DNA of 51,521 nucleotides from positions 1-51,521 of the forward strand of contig PSLI01000011.1 in assembly GCA_040289515.1 (NCBI GenBank), read 5' to 3'. The notes under the pieces were generated by a model. It made no database searches and had not been told where the DNA came from. It saw only the letters and a program-made list of their open reading frames with translations. Of the stretch, positions 9,680 to 21,246 are shown piece after piece (positions within the stretch are counted from its first letter, which is position 1; each line of letters begins with the position of its first letter). The position numbers and the translations under genes are program-made. Source of the stretch: Candidatus Sysuimicrobiota bacterium (GTDB taxonomy: Bacteria; Sysuimicrobiota; Sysuimicrobiia; Sysuimicrobiales; Sysuimicrobiaceae).

Positions 9680-9686
9680 GGTGCCC

Positions 9687-9911
9687 TCACACGCCCACGC
9701 AGCACGCCACCTGCACCACCCCGTGGATGCAGCGCAGCCGTTCCACCAGGGCGGGAATTTCCCGGGTACTCTGCGTGCGCACGACCACCACCACGTCGTA
9801 GGGGCCGAGGGTGGGGTAAACCTCGTGCACCCCGGGAATCATCCGTGCCTCGCGAGCCACCTGTGCGGGCGTGTTCCCGTCCAGGGTCAGCAGCAGGAAG
9901 GCCGCGTTCAC
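9687..9911 (-). CDS. Stand-alone Lrp/AsnC ligand-binding domain protein
   Basis: VNAAFLLLT...IPGVHEVYPTLGPYDVVVVV...IHGV; GTGA coupling to regulator stop. Confidence 0.75.
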   Translation of the reverse strand: MNAAFLLLTLDGNTPAQVAREARMIPGVHEVYPTLGPYDVVVVVRTQSTREIPALVERLRCIHGVVQVACCVGV

Positions 9912-11341
9912 CGAAGGCTCCCCACGGGCTGCTCCAAAAGCACCTGCGCCAGCACCTGTGCGCCCGACGCCACCTCCTCCACCGTGAGGCCTCCGTAAGC
10001 CAGCAGCCAGCCCCGCCGGTCCGGCTGGCCCAGGTAAAAAGGCCGCAGGGGGCTTACCCGCACGCCCCGCCGGCGCGCGGCCTCCGCCAGCTGCTGCTCG
10101 TCCAAGAAGGGGGCGAGCTCCAGGAAGGCGTGCAGCCCCGCTTCCATCCCGCGCAGCTGCGCTACCGCGGACGCCCGATGAAGCGCGTTCTGCAAAGCGC
10201 TGCGTCGCTCCGCATATTGCCTGCGTACCCGGCGCACATGCCGGTCGAAGTCGCCGCTGCCAAGAAATGCCGCCAGCGCGCGCTGCACGGGCCAGGGCAC
10301 CCGGTCCCCGGACCGTTCCCGAAGCCGTACCAGGCGCTCCCGAAGCCACCGCGGTGCCACCACGTACCCCACCCGGAGGCCGGGGGCCAGCACCTTGGAG
10401 AACGTCCCTACGTACACCACCCGGCCCTTCCGGTCCATCCCCGCCAGCGCGGGAAGCGGCGGGCCGTCGAACCGCAGCTCGCTGTCGTAATCGTCCTCCA
10501 CCACCAGCCGGTCATGGCGCGCCGCCCAGTCCAGCAGGGCTACCCGCCGCGCCACGGACATCCGCACGCCCAAGGGGTACTGGTGGGACGGGGTCACGTA
10601 CACCAGGAGGGGCCGCTCGCCCAGCTCGAACGGGCGCAGGCCATCCTCGTCCACGCGCACGGGCAGCAGCAACGCGCCGCGGTCCTCCAGGGTCCTGCGC
10701 GCGGCCGGGTAGCCCGGCTCCTCTACCGCTACCGGGTCCTGATGCCTGAGCAGCGCCTGCGCCACTAGCTCCAGGGCCCTCACGCCGCCCGCGGTCACCA
10801 CCACGTCCGCGGGGCTGCACCGTACGCCCCGGGCACGGCGCAGGTAGTCGACGATGGCCTCCCGAAGCTCCGGGTCCCCTTCCACGGGCCCAGCGTCCCT
10901 CGGCGGGCTCTGCCGAGCCACCGCCCGCCACATGCGGGCCCAGCTGCGCCAGCTGAGGGGCTCCACCACCTGTCGGCCCAGGGTGAAGTCCACCCTGCAG
11001 CCGTCTGGGTCTGGCCCACCTTCAAGGGCCTGCAGAGAAGCCAGCCACCGGGGAGGGGGGGAATGCAGGACCTCTCCGGCCGCAGGTAGTTCGGGAAGCC
11101 CCGAGGCCACATAAGTGCCGGAGCCACGCCGGCCGTCCAGGTACCCCTCCGCCGCGAGCTCCTCGTACACGGTGGTAACCAACGTGCGCGAGCAGCCCAG
11201 GGACTCCGCCAGGGCGCGCGTGGACGGCAGCCGCGTTCCAGGCCTGATGCGGCCTTGCAGGATGGCCTCCCGCAGCTGGTGGGCCAGTTCCCTGGCCCTG
11301 GGCCTTTCGCGAAGGTGCACGCTCAGCTCCACAAGTGGCAC
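9908..11341 (-). CDS. pdxR: MocR/GabR family regulator (GntR HTH + PLP aminotransferase domain), PdxR-like
   Basis: RLPSTRALA HTH, EGYL..RRGSGTYV, TPSHQYPLG, EDDYDSE, GTFSKVLAPGLR; divergent from pdxST operon. Confidence 0.88.
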   Translation of the reverse strand: MPLVELSVHLRERPRARELAHQLREAILQGRIRPGTRLPSTRALAESLGCSRTLVTTVYEELAAEGYLDGRRGSGTYVASGLPELPAAGEVLHSPPPRWLASLQALEGGPDPDGCRVDFTLGRQVVEPLSWRSWARMWRAVARQSPPRDAGPVEGDPELREAIVDYLRRARGVRCSPADVVVTAGGVRALELVAQALLRHQDPVAVEEPGYPAARRTLEDRGALLLPVRVDEDGLRPFELGERPLLVYVTPSHQYPLGVRMSVARRVALLDWAARHDRLVVEDDYDSELRFDGPPLPALAGMDRKGRVVYVGTFSKVLAPGLRVGYVVAPRWLRERLVRLRERSGDRVPWPVQRALAAFLGSGDFDRHVRRVRRQYAERRSALQNALHRASAVAQLRGMEAGLHAFLELAPFLDEQQLAEAARRRGVRVSPLRPFYLGQPDRRGWLLAYGGLTVEEVASGAQVLAQVLLEQPVGSLR

Positions 11342-11390
11342 GAATATTTTGCGCAAAAGTGGACGTTTTCGCAAGCCACTTGGTGGTCTA
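11333..11390. promoter_or_regulatory. Putative PdxR operator array
   Basis: AAGTGGCA, AAAGTGGAC, TGGTGGTCTA (GTGG cores at 11335, 11359, 11383) plus inverted CCACTT 11376-11381 and palindrome TTTTGCGCAAAA. Confidence 0.7.
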
Positions 11391-11410: not shown

Positions 11411-11935
11411 GTGGGAGGTTTGAGGACCCGGGACCTGACGGCAGGCGCCTTGGCGACCGCGCTGGTGGCAGCGACCACCATGGTGATCCGCATCCCGGTG
11501 CCGGCTACCCAGGGTTACATCAACCTGGGTGAGACGGCCGTCTATCTGGCCGCTCTGCTCCTCGGTCCGGTGCACGGGCTGGTGGCAGGTGGCGTGGGAT
11601 CCGCCCTCGCGGACCTGTGGGGCGGCTACGCGCAGTTCGCGCCCTTCACCCTGGTGATCAAGGGGGTGGAGGGCTGGCTCGCTGGCTACCTGTTCTGGAG
11701 GGTGTTGGGAGGGGCTGGGTTCCTCCAGGGAGGGTGGGCGGTCCGGGCTGCGGTTGCGTGTGGGGCTGCCGGCGCGTGGATGGTGGGGGGCTACTACGTG
11801 GCGGAGGCGTTCTTGTTGGGCTTGGGCCCAGCTGCGGCCGCGGAGGTTCCCGGCAACGTGTTCCAGGTGCTGGCAGGGGTCTTGGTGGCCCTGGCGGGGG
11901 CTTCGCTGCTGCGCGGCGTGGTGGCACCCCGGTGA
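11411..11935 (+). CDS. ECF transporter S component, probably vitamin B6 (PdxU2/HmpT-like)
   Basis: IPVPATQGYINLGE, GGVGSALADL, APFTLVIKG, EVPGNVFQ; hydrophobic; operon context. Confidence 0.85.
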   Translation: MGGLRTRDLTAGALATALVAATTMVIRIPVPATQGYINLGETAVYLAALLLGPVHGLVAGGVGSALADLWGGYAQFAPFTLVIKGVEGWLAGYLFWRVLGGAGFLQGGWAVRAAVACGAAGAWMVGGYYVAEAFLLGLGPAAAAEVPGNVFQVLAGVLVALAGASLLRGVVAPR

Positions 11936-12933
11936 TGCGGGTGGGGAAAGTCCCGCCTGAGCTGCTGGAGCGGTTGGTGTACCCGCACCTGGGGCGCCGA
12001 CCGGATGTTCTCGTGCGGGCCCAGGTGGGTGAGGACTGCGCGGTGTTGGACTTCGGGGAGTGGGTGTGCGTGCTGACCACCGATCCCATCACGGGCGCGG
12101 GGCGCCACCTGGGCCGGATCGCGGTGTACGTGGCCACCAACGACCTGGCAGCCACCGGTGCGGAGCCGGTGGCGCTGCTGATGAACGTGCTCTTGCGGGA
12201 GGGGGCAGGCGAAGAAGAGCTGCGGGAGCTCATGGAGGAGGCGGGAAGCGCCGCCGGGGAGCTCGGCGCGGAGATCGTGGGGGGCCACACGGAGGTGACC
12301 GGGGGGCTGGACAGGACGCTGGTGGTGACCACCGCGGTGGGCCGGGCCCGGCGCGGGGAGTTCGTGACCAGCTCCGGAGCCCGGCCGGGGGACAGCCTGG
12401 TGCTCACCAAGGCCGCGGCCCTGGAAGGCACTGCCATTTTGGCGTCGGACTTCGAGGCGTACCTGGCGCGGCACCTGGGCGACGGAGTGGTGCGGCGGGC
12501 CCAGGCCTTTTTGCGCGAGATGAGCGTGGTGCGCGACGGGCGGGCCGCGGTGCGCGCGGGGGCGCGGGCCATGCACGACGCCACCGAGGGTGGCATCCTG
12601 GCCGCGGCGGTGGAGATGGCCGCCGCATCGGGAGTGGGCGTGGAGCTGTACGTGGATTGCGTCCCGGTGCGCCCTGAAACGGAGGCCATCTGCTCCCTGG
12701 TGGGTGTGGACCCTCTCGGCCTCGTTAGCAGTGGAGCCTTGCTGGTGGCCACCCCGACACCGGACCGCACGGTGGCGGCCCTGCAGGGGGCCGGGATTCC
12801 TGCCACGGTGGTGGGTCGGTTCGTGGAGAACGGACGGTGGAAGGTGCTGGGCTGCCGGAGGGAGCCCCTGGAGATGTACCCCGCGGACGAGCTGTGGAGG
12901 GCGCTAGAGCGCCTGCGGCAGCTTGGCGCGTAG
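11935..12933 (+). CDS. AIR synthase-related (PurM/ThiL/HypE/SelD fold) protein
   Basis: GEDCAV, TTDPIT, NDLAATGAEP, IVGGHTE, AMHDATEGG, DPLGLVSSG. Confidence 0.88.
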   Translation: MRVGKVPPELLERLVYPHLGRRPDVLVRAQVGEDCAVLDFGEWVCVLTTDPITGAGRHLGRIAVYVATNDLAATGAEPVALLMNVLLREGAGEEELRELMEEAGSAAGELGAEIVGGHTEVTGGLDRTLVVTTAVGRARRGEFVTSSGARPGDSLVLTKAAALEGTAILASDFEAYLARHLGDGVVRRAQAFLREMSVVRDGRAAVRAGARAMHDATEGGILAAAVEMAAASGVGVELYVDCVPVRPETEAICSLVGVDPLGLVSSGALLVATPTPDRTVAALQGAGIPATVVGRFVENGRWKVLGCRREPLEMYPADELWRALERLRQLGA

Positions 12934-12946
12934 GAGGTGAGGTGCC

Positions 12947-13831
12947 GTGCGACAGACGGGGACGGAACACATCAAGCGGGGTTTGGCGCAGATGCTGAAG
13001 GGTGGGGTCATCATGGACGTCACCACGCCCGAGCAGGCCCGCATCGCGGAGGACGCGGGAGCGGTGGCCGTCATGGCCCTGGAACGGGTCCCCGCGGACA
13101 TCCGCGCGGAGGGCGGGGTGGCTCGCATGGCGGATCCCGCGCGCATCAAGGCCATCATGGCGGCGGTAACCATCCCCGTCATGGCCAAGGTCCGCATCGG
13201 GCACTTCGTGGAGGCGCAGGTGCTGGAGGCGATCGGAGTGGACTTCATCGACGAAAGTGAGGTCCTCACCCCGGCGGACGAGCAGCACCACATCGACAAG
13301 CGGCGCTTTCGTGTGCCCTTCGTGTGCGGGGCTCGGGACCTGGGGGAAGCCCTGCGCCGCATCGGCGAGGGGGCCGCCATGATCCGCACGAAGGGTGAGG
13401 CCGGCACCGGCAACGTGGTGGAGGCCGTGCGGCACGTGCGTCAGATCACGGACGAGATCCGCCGGCTGCAGGCCCTCCCGGAGGAGGAGCTGATGGCAGC
13501 TGCCCGGGACCTGCGGGCTCCCTACGAGCTGGTGCGGGAGGTGCGGCAGCTGGGGCGGCTGCCCGTGGTGAACTTCGCCGCGGGTGGCATCGCCACCCCG
13601 GCGGACGCGGCGCTGATGATGCAGCTGGGGTGCGACGGGGTGTTCGTGGGATCCGGGATCTTCAAGTCCGAGGACCCCGCTCGGCGGGCGCGCGCCATCG
13701 TAGACGCGGTGGCCCACTACGAAGACCCCCAACGCGTGGCACGGGCGTGCGAGGGGCTGGGGGAGCCCATGCGGGGGCTGGACGTACGGCGGCTGCAGCC
13801 CGCAGAGCTGCTGCAGACCCGGGGCACCTGA
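12947..13831 (+). CDS. pdxS: PLP synthase lyase subunit
   Basis: [48 protein letters not shown]. Confidence 0.98.
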
Positions 13832-13842
13832 GGAGGAATCCC

Positions 13843-14418
13843 GTGCGGGTGGGTGTTCTAGCGCTGCAGGGAGACTGCTCCGAGCACGCGGAGGTGCTGC
13901 AGCGAATCGGGGTGCAGGTGGTCCCCGTGCGCACCCCTGAGGCGCTGGAGGGGTTGCGCGGGCTGGTCCTCCCGGGCGGGGAGAGCACGACTCTGGGGGC
14001 CTTGATGACCCGCTGCGGCTTGCATGAGGCCATCCGGGAGCGGGTCCGGGAGGGCATGGCGCTGTTTGGGACGTGCGCGGGATTGATCCTCATGGCCCGC
14101 CGCGCCTCGGGAGGCGAAGTGCCCCTGCTGGGATTGCTGGACGTGGCGGTGGAGCGCAACGCGTACGGGCGGCAGCGGGAAAGCTTCGAGGACGACCTGT
14201 GCTGCCCCGCGGTGGAGTCGAACCCCTTCCGCGTGGCCTTCATCCGGGCCCCCGTGATCACGTGGGTGGGTGCGGGCGTGGAGGTGTTGGCCCGGCACGA
14301 GGGGTTGCCCGTGCTGGTCCGCCAGGGACGCCTGCTGGGCACCACCTTCCACCCGGAGATCACCGGCTACACCGGTGTGCACCGCTACTTTTGCGAACTG
14401 TGCGCCAGGGCGGGTTGA
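13843..14418 (+). CDS. pdxT: PLP synthase glutaminase subunit
   Basis: GVLALQG, PGGESTT, GTCAGLI, RNAYGRQRESF, FIRAP, FHPE. Confidence 0.97.
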   Translation: MRVGVLALQGDCSEHAEVLQRIGVQVVPVRTPEALEGLRGLVLPGGESTTLGALMTRCGLHEAIRERVREGMALFGTCAGLILMARRASGGEVPLLGLLDVAVERNAYGRQRESFEDDLCCPAVESNPFRVAFIRAPVITWVGAGVEVLARHEGLPVLVRQGRLLGTTFHPEITGYTGVHRYFCELCARAG

Positions 14419-14443: not shown

Positions 14444-14482
14444 GGGAGAGCGGCCGCCGCCGCGACAACTGAACAAGCTGTA

Positions 14483-14592
14483 GCCCTGGGGGAGCTCGGA
14501 AGAGCCGGGCTGAGAGTGCGGCCGGTCCCGTGCAGGCCAATGCCGCAGACCCCAAAGACCCGATCCAGGTAATGCTGGCGTGGGGAAGTGGC
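14483..14592 (+). promoter_or_regulatory. TPP riboswitch
   Basis: GGGGG...GCTGAGA...GACCC...GACCCGATCCAGGTAATGCTGGCGTGGGGAAG matches THI-box consensus; precedes thiamine genes. Confidence 0.93.
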
Positions 14593-14604
14593 GAGTCCAC
14601 GGAA

Positions 14605-14640
14605 GCCGCCAGGTCCTGCTCGGGCCTGGCGGTCGTGTTT
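14605..14640 (+). terminator. Riboswitch expression-platform hairpin (attenuator)
   Basis: GCCGCCAGGTCC-tgctc-GGGCCTGGCGGT followed by CGTGTTT, directly before tenA RBS. Confidence 0.6.
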
Positions 14641-14650
14641 GGAGGTGGCC

Positions 14651-15271
14651 GTGAGCCTTTCGCAGGAGCTGTGGGGCAGCCACCGGGAGCTGGCGCACAG
14701 GTGTCTGGAGCATCCCTTCGTGCAGGGCATCGCTTCTGGGCAGCTGCCCCTGGACCGGTTCCGGTTCTACGTGGAGCAGGACGCGTACTTCCTAGACGCC
14801 TTCGCCCGGGCCTACGCGCTGTTGCTGGCCAAGGTCCCCGACCGGCAAGGTTTTTTGGAGCTGAAAAAACTGTTCGACGGCGCCGTGGACGAGCTGCGGC
14901 TGCACCGATCCTACGCGGAGCGATGGGGTGTGAACCTGCAGCCGGCGCCCGCGCCCGCCACCCGTGCGTACACGGACTTCCTGCTGCGGGTCGCAGCTCT
15001 CGAACCGCCCGGTCACGGGCTGGCAGCGCAGGCACCGTGCATGCGGTTGTACGCGTACCTCGGTTCGGAGCTGCGGGCATATCTGCGGCCGGAAAGCCCG
15101 TACGCGGAGTGGGTGCACACCTACGCCAGCGAGGACTTCCACCGCCTGGCCCAGACCCTGGAGCACCTCCTGGACCGCTACGGCGGGGATCCCCGGCGTA
15201 TCCGGGAACTGTACGGCCGCGCCATGGAGCTGGAGTACGAGTTCTTTGACGCCGCGTGGAGGTCAGGTTGA
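14651..15271 (+). CDS. tenA: TenA family thiaminase II (Cys-type)
   Basis: HPFVQGI, FYVEQDAYFL, APCMRLY catalytic Cys, YAEWVHTY, ELEYEFF. Confidence 0.9.
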   Translation: MSLSQELWGSHRELAHRCLEHPFVQGIASGQLPLDRFRFYVEQDAYFLDAFARAYALLLAKVPDRQGFLELKKLFDGAVDELRLHRSYAERWGVNLQPAPAPATRAYTDFLLRVAALEPPGHGLAAQAPCMRLYAYLGSELRAYLRPESPYAEWVHTYASEDFHRLAQTLEHLLDRYGGDPRRIRELYGRAMELEYEFFDAAWRSG

Positions 15272-15891
15272 GCAGCGAGGCGCTGCGGGCGGCGCACAGG
15301 CAGCTGTGGGAGCAAGCCACCCGGCACCCCTTCCTGGACGGGGTGCGGGACGGGACTCTGCCGGAGCCCAGCTTCCAGCGGTGGCTGGTGCAGGACTACC
15401 ACTTCGTCCGCGGCCTGCTGCGGGCGCAGGCGGCCTTCCTGGCCGCGGCACCGCGATCTGACCAGAGGGTGCTGGCCTCGGGGCTTGTGGCCCTGGTGGA
15501 CGAGCTGGATTGGTTCGAGGACCACGCGCGCCGACGTGGTTTAACCCTGGACGTCCCCGTGCACTCCACCTGCCAGGAGTACGTGGACTTCCTCCTGGCC
15601 CTGCGCGAACGGCCGTACCCGGTGCAGATCACGGCCCTGTGGGCGTGCGAGCAGGCTTACCTGGACGCTTGGACGGGCGCGTGGCCGGGCGCGGAGGCGG
15701 ACCGGGAGTTCGTGCACCGCTGGACGCAGCCGGGCTTCGCGGAGTACGTAGCCGCCCTGCAGGCAGCCGCACAGCGAGCGCTGGCCACCGCAGGCCTTGC
15801 GGAGCTGCAGGCGGCGGAGGATGCCTTTTGCCGTGTGGCGGAGCTGGAGCGGCGCTTCTGGGCGATGACGTGGGAAGGAGGCGAAAGATGA
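15268..15891 (+). CDS. TenA family protein (TenA_E-like)
   Basis: ATRHPFL, WLVQDYHFV, DELDWF, WACEQAYLDAW, LERRFWAM; start could be 15256. Confidence 0.85.
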   Translation: MSSEALRAAHRQLWEQATRHPFLDGVRDGTLPEPSFQRWLVQDYHFVRGLLRAQAAFLAAAPRSDQRVLASGLVALVDELDWFEDHARRRGLTLDVPVHSTCQEYVDFLLALRERPYPVQITALWACEQAYLDAWTGAWPGAEADREFVHRWTQPGFAEYVAALQAAAQRALATAGLAELQAAEDAFCRVAELERRFWAMTWEGGER

Positions 15892-16379
15892 CGCGCAAGC
15901 TGGTCCTGGCCGCGGTGTTCGCCGCAGTTCCCGTGATTCTTTCCTTCGTACCGGGCTCCATTCCCGTGGCGGGCGCGAAGCTGCTGCCCTGGCAGCACAT
16001 GGCCAACGCGGTGGCGGGTGTGGTCGTGGGGCCCTGGTACGCCGCCCTGGCAGCCACGCTGGCCGCGGTGCTGCGGAACCTGTTCGGGGTGGGGACCCTT
16101 CTGGCCTTCCCCGGTGGGATTCCCGGCGCCCTGGTGGTGGGTCTGGCGTACCGCCTGTGGCCGCGGAGCTGGGTGGTGCTGCTGGAGCCGGTGGGCACGG
16201 GTCCTGTTGGTGCCACCCTTGGCAGCCTGCTGGTAGCCCCCGTGTTCCTGGGGAAGGCCATTCCCCTCGCCACGCTCCTGCCCCTGTTTTTGGCCAGCAG
16301 CGTACCCGGAGCGGTGCTGGGCTGGGTGGTGCTGCAGGCCCTGGTGCGAGCACGGGTTGTGCCGGAGGTGACGGCATGA
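15888..16379 (+). CDS. thiW: ECF thiazole transporter S component
   Basis: PWQHMANAVAGVVVGPWY, GTLLAFPGGIPGA, EPVGTG. Confidence 0.88.
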   Translation: MTRKLVLAAVFAAVPVILSFVPGSIPVAGAKLLPWQHMANAVAGVVVGPWYAALAATLAAVLRNLFGVGTLLAFPGGIPGALVVGLAYRLWPRSWVVLLEPVGTGPVGATLGSLLVAPVFLGKAIPLATLLPLFLASSVPGAVLGWVVLQALVRARVVPEVTA

Positions 16380-17734
16380 GCGCGCAGGTCCGGGAGGCCG
16401 CGGTCACGACGGAGTGGGGGGTCGAGCCGATCCCCTCGGAGCGCCGGCCCCTCGCGGGTGCGGAGGTGTTCGTCCTCTGGTTCAACCTGGGGGTGAGCCT
16501 GCTGCTGCTGGTGGCGGGTGCGCTGCTCGTGCCCGGCCTGGGTCTGCGGGACGCCTTGCTAGCCACCGCGGTCGGCGTGGTGGTGGGCAACCTGCTGCTG
16601 GGTGTGGCCGCGTGGATCGGGGCGGAGGTGGGAGCGCCCAGCATGGTACTCCTGCGGGCACCTTTGGGGATCCGGGGCTCGGTGGTACCCACCGCCCTCA
16701 ACGTCCTGCAGAACGTGGGGTGGGGAGCCTTCGAGATCCTCATCATCGCCACCAGCGCGGACGCCATCACGCGGCGGCTGGTCGGGTCGTCCAACTATGT
16801 GGCGTGGGTGGCGGTGTTCGGCTTGTTCACGACCCTGATGGCGATAGGCGGTCCCATTGTGGTGGTGCGGCGGTGGCTGCGGCGCTACGCCCTGTGGTTC
16901 GTGCTGGCCTCCACCGTCTACCTGACCTGGTATGTCCTCACCCGTCTGGACCTCGCAGCCCTGTGGAACCGCCCGGGGACCGGGGAGCTGTCCTTCTGGC
17001 TGGGTGTGGACCTGGTGGTGGCCATGCCCGTGTCGTGGATCCCCCTGGCCGCGGACTACACCCGGTTTGCGGTCAGGCCGCACGCCGCCTTCTGGGGAAC
17101 CGCGGCGGGCTACGCGCTGAGCAACTTTTGGTTCTACGCCCTGGGCGTGCTGTTTATGCTGGCGCTGCGGGCTGAGGACCTGGTGGCCGCGGTGCTGGCC
17201 ATCCCCGCAGGGGCCGTGGCCCTGGCCATCCTCCTCGCGGACGAGACCGACGAAGCCTTCGCCAACATCTACAGCACCTCGGTGTCGCTGCAGAACCTGT
17301 GGCCCCGGGCGGACCGCAAGCAACTGGCGGTGGCCTCGGGTGCGGTGTGCTCCGTGCTGGCGGCCACGGTGCCCCTGACCCAGTACGAGTCCTTCCTGTT
17401 CCTCATCGGGGCGTTTTTCGTTCCCCTGTTCGGCGTGCTGGCCGCAGACTACTTCGCGGTGCGGCGGCGCCAGCTGGACCCGGAGGAGCTGTACGGACCC
17501 GGGGCGCGTCCCGTTCGCTGGAAGGGGTTCGCGCCGTGGTTGGTGGGCTTCTTCGTTTACCAGTGGATCGTGCCGACGGACATCCCCGGGTGGAAGGAGA
17601 TGCTGGCGGCCCTGTTCGGTTCCGTGGGGCTGCCCTTCCCCCTGAGTGCCCACGTCCCGTGGCTGGGCGGCTCGCTGCCCAGCCTGGCGGCGAGCTTCGT
17701 CCTGTACACCCTGCTGGCGGGGAGGAGGCGGTGA
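16376..17734 (+). CDS. cytX: NCS1 family hydroxymethylpyrimidine permease
   Basis: LNVLQNVGW, AMPVSWIPLAADYTRF, many TM helices; TPP regulon. Confidence 0.82.
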   Translation: MSAQVREAAVTTEWGVEPIPSERRPLAGAEVFVLWFNLGVSLLLLVAGALLVPGLGLRDALLATAVGVVVGNLLLGVAAWIGAEVGAPSMVLLRAPLGIRGSVVPTALNVLQNVGWGAFEILIIATSADAITRRLVGSSNYVAWVAVFGLFTTLMAIGGPIVVVRRWLRRYALWFVLASTVYLTWYVLTRLDLAALWNRPGTGELSFWLGVDLVVAMPVSWIPLAADYTRFAVRPHAAFWGTAAGYALSNFWFYALGVLFMLALRAEDLVAAVLAIPAGAVALAILLADETDEAFANIYSTSVSLQNLWPRADRKQLAVASGAVCSVLAATVPLTQYESFLFLIGAFFVPLFGVLAADYFAVRRRQLDPEELYGPGARPVRWKGFAPWLVGFFVYQWIVPTDIPGWKEMLAALFGSVGLPFPLSAHVPWLGGSLPSLAASFVLYTLLAGRRR

Positions 17735-18552
17735 AACCGGGGCGGCTCCTGGAACGGGTGAGGGCCGTCCGCCCTGTGGTGCACCACCTGACGAACTTCG
17801 TGACCGCCAACGACGTGGCGAACGTGACCCTCGCCACGGGTGCCGTGCCCGTCATGGCCCACGCGGCCGAGGAGGTAGCGGAGGTGGTGGACCAGGCTTC
17901 CTGCGTGGTGCTGAACCTGGGCACGCCCACCCCAAGCCGGTTGCAGGTCATGCGGGAGGCCGGGCGCCGAGCCAACGCACGCGGTGTGCCCGTGGTGATG
18001 GACCCGGTGGGCGTGGGGCTGAGCCGGTTTCGCGCGGAGGCTGTTGCGGGTATCCTGCAGGAGGTCCGAACCTCCGCGGTGCGGGCCAACCTGGCGGAGA
18101 TGGCGCACTTGGCCGGAGCGGAGGGGCTCCTGCGGGGGGTTGAGTCCGCGGGTGCGGGTGCCGCTCCCGAAGACGCGGCACGGCGCGTGGCGCGCCGGTA
18201 CCGGTTGGTGGCCGCAGTCACCGGGCCTCAGGACTGGGTCACAGACGGGGCGCGCCTCGTGCGGGTGGACAACGGACACCCGCTGCTGCAGCGCATCACG
18301 GGTGGGGGCTGCATGGCCACCGCGGTGGTGGCCTGCTTTATGGCGGTGGCGGAGGACCTGTTGGAGGCCTCCGTGGCGGCGCTGGCGTACTTCGGGTACG
18401 CCGCGGAGCTGGCCGCCGCGCAGGCCACCGGAGGCGGCAGCTTCCGCGCCCTGCTGCTGGATCAGCTGGCACAGATGCGCCCGGAGGACCTGGAGCAGGG
18501 GGCGCGGGTACGGGAAGTCTCCTCCCCGGCCACGGGAGGTTCAGGAGACTGA
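17731..18552 (+). CDS. thiM: Hydroxyethylthiazole kinase
   Basis: PVVHHLTNFVT, NLGT, DPVGVG, ITGGGC. Confidence 0.95.
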   Translation: MKPGRLLERVRAVRPVVHHLTNFVTANDVANVTLATGAVPVMAHAAEEVAEVVDQASCVVLNLGTPTPSRLQVMREAGRRANARGVPVVMDPVGVGLSRFRAEAVAGILQEVRTSAVRANLAEMAHLAGAEGLLRGVESAGAGAAPEDAARRVARRYRLVAAVTGPQDWVTDGARLVRVDNGHPLLQRITGGGCMATAVVACFMAVAEDLLEASVAALAYFGYAAELAAAQATGGGSFRALLLDQLAQMRPEDLEQGARVREVSSPATGGSGD

Positions 18553-18553
18553 G

Positions 18554-19204
18554 GTGCAGCTGGACCTGCGGGTGTACGTGATCACCGACCGTTCCTTCCG
18601 GGGCCGCACGCACGAGCAAGTGGCCCGGGCAGCGCTCCGAGGTGGTGCCACCGCGGTGCAGCTGCGGGACAAGCAGGCCACGGGGCGCGAGCTGCTGCAG
18701 TGGGCCCGGCAGTTGCGGGACCTGACCCGAGCCGCGGGGGTGCTGTTTTTGGTCAACGACCGGGTGGACGTGGCCCTGGCCGTGCACGCAGATGGCGTCC
18801 ACGTGGGCCAGGAGGACGTGCCGGTGGCGGACGCGCGGCAGTTGATGGGCCCTGGGCGGGTGGTGGGCGCCTCCGCTGGTAACGTGGAGGAGGCGCTGCA
18901 GGCCGAACAGGCGAGTGCGGACTACCTGGGAGTGGGCCCGGTGTTTCCCACCGCTACCAAACCCGACGCGGGGGAAGCCATCGGGGTAGACGGCCTGCGG
19001 AGGATCGTGCAGGCAGTACGGCTCCCGGTGGTGGCCATCGGCGGCATCACCGCCGACAACGCGGGGCAGGCCATCCGCGCAGGTGCCGTGGGCGTGGCGG
19101 TGATCTCCGCGGTGGCAGCCGCGGACGACATGGTGGCCGCCACCCGACAGCTGCGGGAAGCAGTGGACGCGGCACTGCGGGAACGAGGAGGTGCGTGGGC
19201 GTGA
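18554..19204 (+). CDS. thiE: Thiamine phosphate synthase
   Basis: QLRDK, VNDRVDVA, GVHVGQED, GPVFPTATK, VAIGGI. Confidence 0.96.
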   Translation: MQLDLRVYVITDRSFRGRTHEQVARAALRGGATAVQLRDKQATGRELLQWARQLRDLTRAAGVLFLVNDRVDVALAVHADGVHVGQEDVPVADARQLMGPGRVVGASAGNVEEALQAEQASADYLGVGPVFPTATKPDAGEAIGVDGLRRIVQAVRLPVVAIGGITADNAGQAIRAGAVGVAVISAVAAADDMVAATRQLREAVDAALRERGGAWA

Positions 19205-20022
19205 GCATTCCCAGGGCACTGACCATCGCAGGTTCGGACTCCGGGGGTGGGGCCGGCATCCAGGCGGACCTGAAGACCTTTTCCGCCCTCGGGGTGTTCG
19301 GGATGAGCGCGGTCACCGCGCTCACAGCGCAGAACACCACGGGCGTGTATGCGGTCCACGAGGTGCCGCCCGAGGTGGTGGCCCGGCAAATCGACGTGGT
19401 GGTGGAGGACATCGGGGTGGACGCGGCCAAGACGGGGATGCTGAGCAGCGTGCCCATCATCGAGGCGGTGGCGGATCGGGTTCGGCGGCACCGGTTGCAG
19501 CAGCTGGTGGTGGATCCCGTGATGGTGGCCAAAAGCGGGGCGCCGCTGCTTCGCCCGGAGGCCCAACACACCCTGCGGACCCAGCTGGTACCCCTGGCCC
19601 TCGTGATCACCCCCAACCTGCCGGAGGCGGAAGTACTGCTGGGCCGCCCGATCCCGGACCGGTCCGCCCTGCAGGAAGCCGCCCGCGCTCTGCTGGACCT
19701 GGGTCCGCGTGCGGTCCTCCTAAAAGGGGGACACCTTCCGGGCGAGCCCGTGGACCTGTTCTACGACGGGGAACAACTCGAGGAGCTGCGTGCGGAGCGC
19801 GTGCCCACGCGCCATACCCACGGTACGGGCTGCGTGTTGTCTGCCGCCATCACCGCGTACCTGAGCCTGGGGATGCCCCTGCGGGAGGCGGTGCGGGGCG
19901 GTAAACGGTTCGTGACGGAAGCCATCCGGTTCGGGTTGCCCCTGGGCCGGGGCGTTGGCCCCTGCAACCCCCTGTTCCAATGGATACGACCGGACCAGGG
20001 CACCCCTGGAGGTGGCACGTGA
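19201..20022 (+). CDS. thiD: HMP/HMP-P kinase
   Basis: LTIAGSDSGGGAGIQADLKTF, DPVMVAKSG, THGTGC. Confidence 0.96.
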   Translation: MSIPRALTIAGSDSGGGAGIQADLKTFSALGVFGMSAVTALTAQNTTGVYAVHEVPPEVVARQIDVVVEDIGVDAAKTGMLSSVPIIEAVADRVRRHRLQQLVVDPVMVAKSGAPLLRPEAQHTLRTQLVPLALVITPNLPEAEVLLGRPIPDRSALQEAARALLDLGPRAVLLKGGHLPGEPVDLFYDGEQLEELRAERVPTRHTHGTGCVLSAAITAYLSLGMPLREAVRGGKRFVTEAIRFGLPLGRGVGPCNPLFQWIRPDQGTPGGGT

Positions 20023-20525
20023 TTCCCGGCCGGACCCGTCAGCTGGCGGAGTCCGGCATTGCCATCGCGCTGGCCGCGGCCCTGGGCCTGGTCAAGGTGT
20101 ACCAGCTACCCCAGGGCGGCTCTATCACCGCCGGCAGCATGGTGCCTCTCTTCTACCTTAGCCTCCGCCGGGGCCCGCGCACGGGTACGGCGGCGGGCGC
20201 GTTGCTGGGCCTGCTGAACTTCGTGCTGGAACCCGTCTTCGTTCATCCCGTGCAGTTCCTGCTGGATTACCCGGTGGCCTTCGGTGCCCTGGGGCTTGCG
20301 GGCTTCTTCCCCCGCACGCCCTGGCTGGGTGTGGTGGTGGGCGGAGCGGCCCGGTTCGTGTCTCACTTCCTCAGCGGGGTGGTGTTCTTCGCGCAGTACG
20401 CTCCGCGCGGGACCAGCCCTGCCTTGTACTCCGCCGTGTACAACGGCTCCTACATGCTGCCGGAGGTGGTGGTGAGCGTTCTGCTGACACTGCTGGTGCT
20501 GCGAGCCCTCCCGCGGGAGGGGTAG
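20019..20525 (+). CDS. thiT: ECF thiamine transporter S component
   Basis: LPQGGSIT, HPVQFLLDY, HFLSGVVFF, YSAVYNGSY. Confidence 0.92.
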   Translation: MIPGRTRQLAESGIAIALAAALGLVKVYQLPQGGSITAGSMVPLFYLSLRRGPRTGTAAGALLGLLNFVLEPVFVHPVQFLLDYPVAFGALGLAGFFPRTPWLGVVVGGAARFVSHFLSGVVFFAQYAPRGTSPALYSAVYNGSYMLPEVVVSVLLTLLVLRALPREG

Positions 20526-20574
20526 CGCGGCCCACAGACCCGGCTTTTTGCGACGCACACGGGTGCAGGTTACC

Positions 20575-21246
20575 ATGCCTTCCGTGGGACTGCGGCAGCC
20601 CTATGCGGCCATCGTGGCCGGCGGCCGCGGCCCCCTGCCGGGCCGCTTTCGGACCGCAAAGCTCGTGGTGTGCGCGGACGGCGGGGCCTCCCGTGCTTAC
20701 CGGGCCGGTTGGACCCCTCACGTGGTGGTGGGCGACTGGGACTCCCTGGATCCGAAGCTGACGGATTGGCTGGTCCAGGTTGGCGCCGAGCGGATCCGCT
20801 ACCCCGCGGACAAGGACAAGACGGACGCGGAGCTGGCGGTGGACGTGGTGGCGGACCGCGGGTTCCGCACCGCGTACTTGCTGGGCGGCCTGGGTAAGCG
20901 GGTGGACCACGAGTTGGCCAACCTGCTGCTGCCCCATTACGCTGCGGAGCGCGGGGTGGACCTGCGGGTGGTGGCCGGGGGGACTGTGGTGCAGCTGGTG
21001 CGGGGCCGGGTACAGCTGGACGCCCGGGGGGGCGACTGGGTCTCCTTGTTCTCCCTTTGCCCCCAAAGCGTGGGAATCTACACGGGCGGGCTGCGGTTTG
21101 CCTTGGTGGACGGTACGCTCAAATTCGGAAGCACCTTGGGTGTGAGCAACGAGGTCACCGAGGAGCCCGCCTGGGTGGAGGTCCAGCAGGGGGAGCTGCT
21201 GGCGGTCCGGGTGCGTCAGCTCCGTGCGCGGCCGAAGGGAGGTTGA
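20575..21246 (+). CDS. thiN: Thiamine pyrophosphokinase
   Basis: CADGGA, VGDWDSL, DKDKTDAELA, GKRVDHELAN, LGVSNE. Confidence 0.93.
   Translation: MPSVGLRQPYAAIVAGGRGPLPGRFRTAKLVVCADGGASRAYRAGWTPHVVVGDWDSLDPKLTDWLVQVGAERIRYPADKDKTDAELAVDVVADRGFRTAYLLGGLGKRVDHELANLLLPHYAAERGVDLRVVAGGTVVQLVRGRVQLDARGGDWVSLFSLCPQSVGIYTGGLRFALVDGTLKFGSTLGVSNEVTEEPAWVEVQQGELLAVRVRQLRARPKGG

Follow-up and report, generated by a model that had tools for sequence, protein, structure and literature searches.

P0001 is an orphan relative of PurM, HypE, SelD and ThiL encoded in a 51,521-nucleotide stretch of DNA from a Candidatus Sysuimicrobiota bacterium (contig PSLI01000011.1 of assembly GCA_040289515.1). The whole stretch is called the window below, and the bacterium, of the family Sysuimicrobiaceae and order Sysuimicrobiales, the host. 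We propose that P0001 is a PurM-fold vitamin B6-vitamer 5′-kinase, non-homologous to PdxK and replacing it. This is predicted from its fold, its ATP/metal site, the coupling of its gene and the distribution of its family, and we put the probability at about 0.72. Literature is cited by PMC number.

Gene coupling and distribution of the P0001 family

An earlier note on this DNA, made from the letters alone, had described a B6-type energy-coupling factor (ECF) S-component joined through TGATG to an AIR-synthase-related gene, followed by pdxS-pdxT and facing a MocR/PdxR regulator, and had suggested that this orphan subfamily serves B6 salvage. Sequence and profile searches bear out the anatomy (Table 1): in the TGATG at 11933-11937 the S-component stop codon TGA (11933-11935) overlaps the P0001 ATG at 11935. 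Two starts are placed from those of homologues: the S-component probably begins at TTG 11420, not at the opening of the frame at 11411, and PdxR at GTG 11332. The operon does lack pdxK, as had been claimed, and a genome-wide PF08543 search also leaves the host (96.7% complete) without PdxK, finding only thiD and a weak match to thiM.

The sole significant solved relative of the S-component is HmpT/PdxU2 from L. brevis (4HZU_S). Four of the six HmpT pocket residues are identical (E41, Y128, N149 and Q152, for E41, Y120, N140 and Q143 in HmpT) and the remaining two differ, with K for H84 and E for Q87. HMP was the first presumed cargo of HmpT, which carries pyridoxamine by mass spectrometry and simulation (PMC4860826). 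Known B6 kinases pair with PdxU/PdxU2 and with PdxR control (PMC5320631, PMC6593275); in lactic acid bacteria, consecutive gene numbers place the same transporter beside PdxK/PdxK2 (PMC6593275 Table S2). The 19 aligned S-component neighbours of family members form one PdxU2-like group. Some PdxU2-like S-components (at L035, L036, L045, L117, L135, L146, L148 and L167) have an inter-helix insertion of ~40-90 residues, probably extra membrane segments.

Within the host order the S-component lies directly upstream at 21 of 30 family loci. Outside it we examined 160 loci, the 80 top-ranked ones from each of a genome and a metagenome scan that gave about 600 candidates apiece, and the S-component adjoins the family gene at 24 of these (21 upstream, 3 convergent). 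In archaea it is adjacent, upstream or convergent, at 14 of the 30 best-scoring loci. This adjacency changes 14 times on the family tree, across bacterial and archaeal clades. The proposed survey of co-occurrence comes out in favour of the suggestion, with one qualification: PdxU2/HmpT adjacency recurs in bacteria and archaea, whereas pdxR and pdxST flank the family gene in the host family only, and with pdxS beside it at 0 of the 160 other loci a general adjacency to pdxST is rejected. Because of this restriction, the 'complete sense-import-salvage-synthesise module' of the earlier note is a local arrangement, with its gene set present in the host family and not general. The pattern named as refuting, in which homologues would sit mainly beside hydrogenase, purine or thiamine genes, is not seen for the main clade (clade A), and there are no hyp or pur genes among the recurrent annotated neighbours. 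At Lachnospiraceae loci, downstream tblastn matches to 'PdxR' are class I aminotransferases and were rejected as regulators.

Anti-correlation with PdxK had been proposed as a check, and it holds in Clostridia. We scored 180 genomes drawn evenly from this class (that of G041; G144 is outside the counts), taking PdxK as the COG2240 type. The family occurs in 60 and PdxK in 107, and 9 genomes have both, against 35.7 expected. When only intact clade A copies are counted, which leaves out G114 (clade B only) and G135 and G212 (degenerate), intactness having been inspected in 20 of 63 clostridial family matches, 7 genomes have both (33.9 expected), 50 the family only, 100 PdxK only and 23 neither. 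An RpoB tree covers 148 of the 180; the 32 absent are those with the weakest or unlisted RpoB matches, plus the mis-extracted G069. On this tree the intact set gives 13 independent pairs, in which PdxK changes in the opposite direction in 8.0 and in the same direction in 0.1 (median sign-test p 0.0078, range 0.004-0.07). With all 60 copies the figures are 7.7 and 0.0 of 14 pairs. The control pairs show no effect (opposite/same 5.4/3.4, p 0.73 for pdxS; 0.8/1.5, p 1 for ThiD), and co-variation of the family with pdxS or ThiD in Clostridia is rejected.

The family is present, and both pdxS and PdxK absent, in 34 of the clostridial genomes, 20 of which also lack ThiD. Among the 118 with thiamine pyrophosphokinase (TPK) and no pdxS, a filter chosen post hoc, only 3 lack both kinases and 24.8 would be expected. 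A further observation concerns 16 genomes with none of pdxS, PdxK, ThiD and the family; 14 of them, mostly small, also lack TPK (G064, G093, G099, G113, G123, G129, G133, G150, G156, G177, G182, G202, G206 and G230) and may import phosphorylated cofactors. A named example is Roseburia hominis, which encodes the family member WP_278898674.1, in a strain that we have not matched to A2-183. A published table enters strain A2-183 among the B6 auxotrophs, with a B6 transporter and neither PdxK nor PdxST (PMC6593275 Table S2, columns assigned by position), and a second source agrees, giving R. hominis pdxU2 without pdxST (PMC7478625).

The archaeal sample comprises 101 genomes (G231-G330 and G043) from the phylum of G043, a Bathyarchaeota record; we take this phylum to be Thermoproteota in GTDB. 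The family is found in 80 and pdxS in 39. It occurs in 61 of the 62 genomes without pdxS and in 19 of the 39 with it, so that a single genome (G245) has neither, against 12.9 expected. Fourteen of the 101 have neither pdxS nor any full-length ThiD/PdxK match. PdxST has been described as the only route of archaea (PMC9997740). In the host order, too, the family is present in 15 of the 17 pdxS-less genomes; in the five of these that were tested pdxJ and PdxK are absent, and ThiD is also absent in four. On genomic grounds, then, the family fills the PdxK gap and is linked to a B6-type transporter, and the overall suggestion of a B6 salvage role is supported by the PdxU2 adjacency together with the PdxK anti-correlation.

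Several points weigh against a kinase of this kind. The S-component is missing at 136 of the 160 loci and pdxS at all of them. Most clostridial copies lie in lineage-specific housekeeping surroundings (VanW-like, Lrp with an aminotransferase, iscS-thiI, glyA, ligA, dnaX), and host-order copies are often just upstream of thiT-TPK or thiW-thiM. An intact enzyme and PdxK coexist in 7 of 180 Clostridia, PdxK is unchanged in 4.9 of the 13 independent pairs, and p rises to 0.07 across pairings. The archaeal counts ignore kinship and their 61 matches are only partly typed as clade A. De novo synthesis in Clostridia and archaea was judged by pdxS, with pdxJ outside the search, and the absence counts in both were made without displayed genome completeness figures. 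The activity itself is a prediction from sequence, gene linkage and distribution, and to our knowledge no PurM-family enzyme phosphorylates a plain alcohol. The host has pdxST and ThiD, and therefore no need for a new kinase; ThiD is also found in about 85 of the 101 archaea. Since ThiD-family enzymes are able to phosphorylate B6 (PMC5320631), moonlighting by ThiD may supply the salvage kinase instead.

A more sweeping objection is that P0001 is an unrelated housekeeping ATP-dependent enzyme with accidental B6 neighbours and a phyletic profile that reflects lineage and ecology. The varied clostridial neighbourhoods, the confinement of pdxST adjacency to one family and the non-independence of related genomes speak for this. 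We nevertheless consider it improbable, because adjacency to the transporter is seen repeatedly, in either orientation and in bacteria as well as archaea, the exclusion of PdxK persists in independent pairs with null controls, and the family complements pdxS in archaea.

An orphan member of the PurM superfamily

P0001 has the two-domain AIRS and AIRS_C architecture of the PurM superfamily, and its predicted structure has a mean confidence (pLDDT) of 97. Foldseek searches with this model retrieve HypE, SelD and ThiL at template-modelling (TM) scores of 0.65-0.79 and 18-25% identity. D34, D50, D70 and D215 align with the metal/ATP-site aspartates of these three enzymes and are retained in essentially all of 205 family members. 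Conservation among these members reaches 90% or more in 47 columns, and P0001 matches all 47. The family-specific residues H118, E120, E164, S197, H214, E218, S266 and D318 are candidates for the acceptor pocket.

Orphan status within the fold, which the earlier note had claimed, withstands comparison with the curated profiles, as P0001 falls below every PurM-superfamily cut-off. HypE is its best profile and best fold match (118 bits, TM 0.79), which accounts for database misnomers such as 'HypE' and 'hydrogenase maturation factor'; the identity is rejected, since the cut-off is 252 (TIGR02124) and the P0001 C-terminus lacks the PRIC cysteine. We take PRIC, which is seen in L417, to be the C-terminal cysteine motif of HypE. 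SelD is rejected at 95 bits against 125 (TIGR00476), Lys5 being present and the cysteine or selenocysteine (Cys/Sec) missing. ThiL is rejected at 92 bits against 184 (TIGR01379), the ThiL-specific stretches being missing by comparison with the ThiL of L043, and PurM and PurL at 21 against 236 and 35 against 526 bits. Nor does P0001 belong with PdxK, PdxY or PdxK2, having no PF08543 or PF00294 match; it could be an analogue at most.

Comparison with the relatives shows what is shared and what is not. ThiL (PDB 3C9T and 5CC8) has the same PurM-like fold (TM 0.70-0.71) and the four aspartates. P0001 differs in being about 22% identical, in lacking the HF, GGEDF and C-terminal WDHF stretches, and in carrying Lys5, GGHTE, E164 and H214; the acceptor would be an alcohol in the proposed reaction where ThiL phosphorylates a phosphate. 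In-line phosphate transfer by ThiL to a small vitamin derivative is a model for the proposed chemistry (PMC6416309). SelD and an archaeal SelD-like family share with P0001 an N-terminal Lys, the four aspartates and GGH[TS] and LTK motifs (TM 0.72-0.76). The SelD family needs a Cys/Sec three residues ahead of its Lys (PMC4210487), and none precedes Lys5 at that distance in P0001. The true enzymes coexist with the family, HypE in G041 and SelD in G041 and G044. PdxK/PdxY (COG2240) and PdxK2/ThiD2 catalyse the very reaction that we propose, with a non-homologous ribokinase fold and, for the COG2240 type, a distribution nearly mutually exclusive with that of the family.

These likenesses also raise the possibility that P0001 serves B6 salvage by other chemistry, either amide activation of the PurM/HypE type on an acylated or oxidised vitamer or a SelD-type two-step phosphorylation. 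Such a route would share the transporter linkage and the phyletic profile. HypE and SelD are closer in fold than ThiL, SelD's Lys, GGH and LTK motifs are present, and one fusion to a HAD phosphatase is known. We think it unlikely all the same: the mutual exclusion with PdxK is most easily understood if both enzymes make one and the same phosphorylated vitamer, 160 and a further 50 loci show no recurring enzyme that could supply or complete another route, and the catalytic Cys/Sec of SelD is missing.

The matches listed include at least 4615 family sequences, whose present database names are AIR synthase, HypE or thiamine-phosphate kinase. CDD cd06061 'PurM-like1' and the NCBI name 'AIR synthase family protein' probably denote this same unnamed family; no function is attached to either name in the sources searched. 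We found no solved structure within the subfamily, the best sequence match being HypE (E 3e-24), and the ESM Atlas returned AIR-synthase-named clusters only. Of 41 host-order genomes, 39 have one copy of the family gene, with two contig-split copies. The names of homologues put the host close to Armatimonadota. The host genome itself yielded no ThiL, HypE or SelD, and its three other AIRS domains sit together on C43, where the layout reads as purL and purM.

A search for longer forms gave the HAD fusion (N-terminal domain, P0272), as well as proteins with a C-terminal Ham1 domain (P0207) and a C-terminal low-molecular-weight phosphatase domain (P0186). The Ham1 and LMWPc cases, from 12 long representatives, look like fused neighbours and were set aside as evidence. 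Two degenerate copies (L348:4009-4980 and L354:4045-5022) lack D50, D70 and E218, through decay after redundancy or as pseudo-enzymes. Both occur in PdxK-bearing genomes, which we count in favour of the B6-kinase role.

Proposed reaction and a second clade beside thiamine genes

The proposed pathway would begin with uptake of pyridoxamine or pyridoxal by the PdxU2-type S-component working with the host's single EcfT module (PdxU2-EcfAA'T). P0001, probably a homodimer binding Mg-ATP at its interface as in ThiL, would then move the gamma-phosphate of ATP in line to the 5′-hydroxyl of the vitamer. The resulting pyridoxal 5′-phosphate (PLP) would be used directly, and pyridoxamine 5′-phosphate (PMP) would enter through aminotransferase turnover; aminotransferases convert PMP back to PLP. 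Pyridoxine would be the least likely useful substrate, because no pdxH was found in the host genome. A less likely variant is a SelD-like route, in which ATP would give AMP and phosphate via the conserved Lys5. PdxR activates at low PLP (PMC5320631), so in the host family, where the S-component and the enzyme stand under PdxR with pdxST, low PLP would induce uptake, salvage and synthesis together.

The thiamine pathway offers another home for the enzyme, as a ThiL-, ThiM- or ThiD-like kinase or a thiamine kinase, with the S-component carrying HMP. It shares the ThiL fold, the host has no other ThiL, a thiamine cluster lies next door, and HmpT was at first taken for an HMP carrier. In other host-order families thiT-TPK or thiW-thiM-thiE-thiL-thiD follow the family gene, so those thiamine functions are already supplied there. 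True thiL, thiM and thiD adjoin a clade A gene in L043, as do thiL and thiD in L040; all 60 family-positive Clostridia have TPK and there is no link to the presence of ThiD. A thiamine role would leave both the PdxK exclusion and the complementarity with pdxS unexplained, and we regard it as quite improbable for P0001.

Some family members do adjoin thiamine genes. A quick tree resolves a 17-member clade B (SH-aLRT support 99) that includes all nine thiamine-adjacent loci of the tree (beside thiD-thiE, thiE, ThiN, ThiDN, cytX or thiT); no PdxU2-adjacent locus falls within it. Its members are L346:3962-5002, L347:3989-5008, L349:4037-5056, L396-L398, L402-L407 and L410-L414, often with GGHTG instead of GGHTE. 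Full-length ThiM is found in one of ten clade B thiamine-adjacent genomes, and clade B is likely an alternative thiazole or thiamine kinase. This sets the thiamine associations apart from the main clade and speaks for phosphorylation of hydroxyalkyl heterocycles as the common function of the family, yet it keeps a thiamine role in view. A wider generalization, for which our confidence falls a little short of even, is that the family forms a second set of vitamin-salvage alcohol kinases. In about one third of Clostridia (including gut Roseburia), in the host order and in most pdxST-less archaea of the phylum sampled, its main clade would supply the missing B6 kinase and, in genomes without pdxST, the sole route to PLP; the separate clade, often with GGHTG, would be a missing thiazole or thiamine kinase replacing ThiM beside thiE, ThiN or ThiT.

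The existence of an unknown B6 kinase has been expected (PMC9997740, PMC6593275). Literature searches, which did not extend to most subscription papers, to the regulon tables supplementing PMC5320631 or to the supplement of PMC9997740, found no paper linking the family to B6. What would be new is the pairing of a known reaction with a known fold, each already known separately. If the B6-kinase prediction is correct, this would be the first alcohol-kinase chemistry, and a new reaction type, in the PurM superfamily. It would fill a recognised gap in the B6 supply of many gut bacteria and archaea, correct models of vitamin cross-feeding for gut Clostridia, and extend B6 salvage to many archaea (pdxS is missing from 62 of the 101 sampled). 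It also singles out a named, cloneable candidate for the missing kinase among thousands of mislabelled sequences.

Regulation and neighbouring features

Table 1. Features at and around the P0001 gene in the window.
Feature	Position	Strand	Basis
pdxR, PLP-sensing MocR-family regulator	9908..11332	-	NF052282, 438 bits (cut-off 320); start GTG 11332 inferred from homologues with ATG there
Predicted PdxR operator, three boxes	11333..11381		AAGTGG 11333-38, AAGTGG 11357-62, inverted CCACTT 11376-81
ECF S-component, PdxU2/HmpT type	11420..11935	+	PF07155, 118 bits; 4HZU_S, E 6e-14
P0001, PurM/HypE/SelD/ThiL-fold orphan enzyme, candidate B6-vitamer kinase	11935..12933	+	AIRS and AIRS_C; 332 aa
pdxS, lyase subunit of PLP synthase	12947..13831	+	NF003215, 525 bits (cut-off 395)
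pdxT, glutaminase subunit of PLP synthase	13843..14418	+	TIGR03800, 208 bits (cut-off 106)
Thiamine pyrophosphate (TPP) riboswitch, separate control, heading the neighbouring thiamine-salvage cluster	14478..14603	+	RF00059, 59.7 bits (gathering 54.3)
Thiamine cluster: tenA, tenA, thiW, cytX-like permease, thiM, thiE, thiD, thiT, TPK	14651..21246	+	Pfam, NCBIfam

The pdxR side of the locus has the features of a PdxR regulon, i.e. a regulator scoring above the cut-off of the PdxR equivalog profile, a divergent layout and two direct boxes with one inverted box, which is the commonest layout of MocR operator motifs (PMC5320631). An alignment of 11 host-family intergenic regions shows the box cores TGG/CCA preserved, and we predict that the boxes form the PdxR operator. 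A promoter scan gave nothing informative.

Directly 3′ of pdxT lie a TPP riboswitch and a thiamine-salvage cluster with thiD, which the earlier note did not mention. Together (14478-21246) they hold two tenA paralogues, three uptake genes (thiW, the cytX-like gene and thiT), thiM-thiE-thiD and TPK. The host genome has no ThiL, and the thiamine monophosphate phosphatase step is unaccounted for. On the other side, directly behind pdxR, a small ORF at 9684-9911 (- strand) resembles, by eye, an Lrp/AsnC ligand-binding domain, and such an ORF is retained near P0001 homologues across the host order, even at loci without pdxR.

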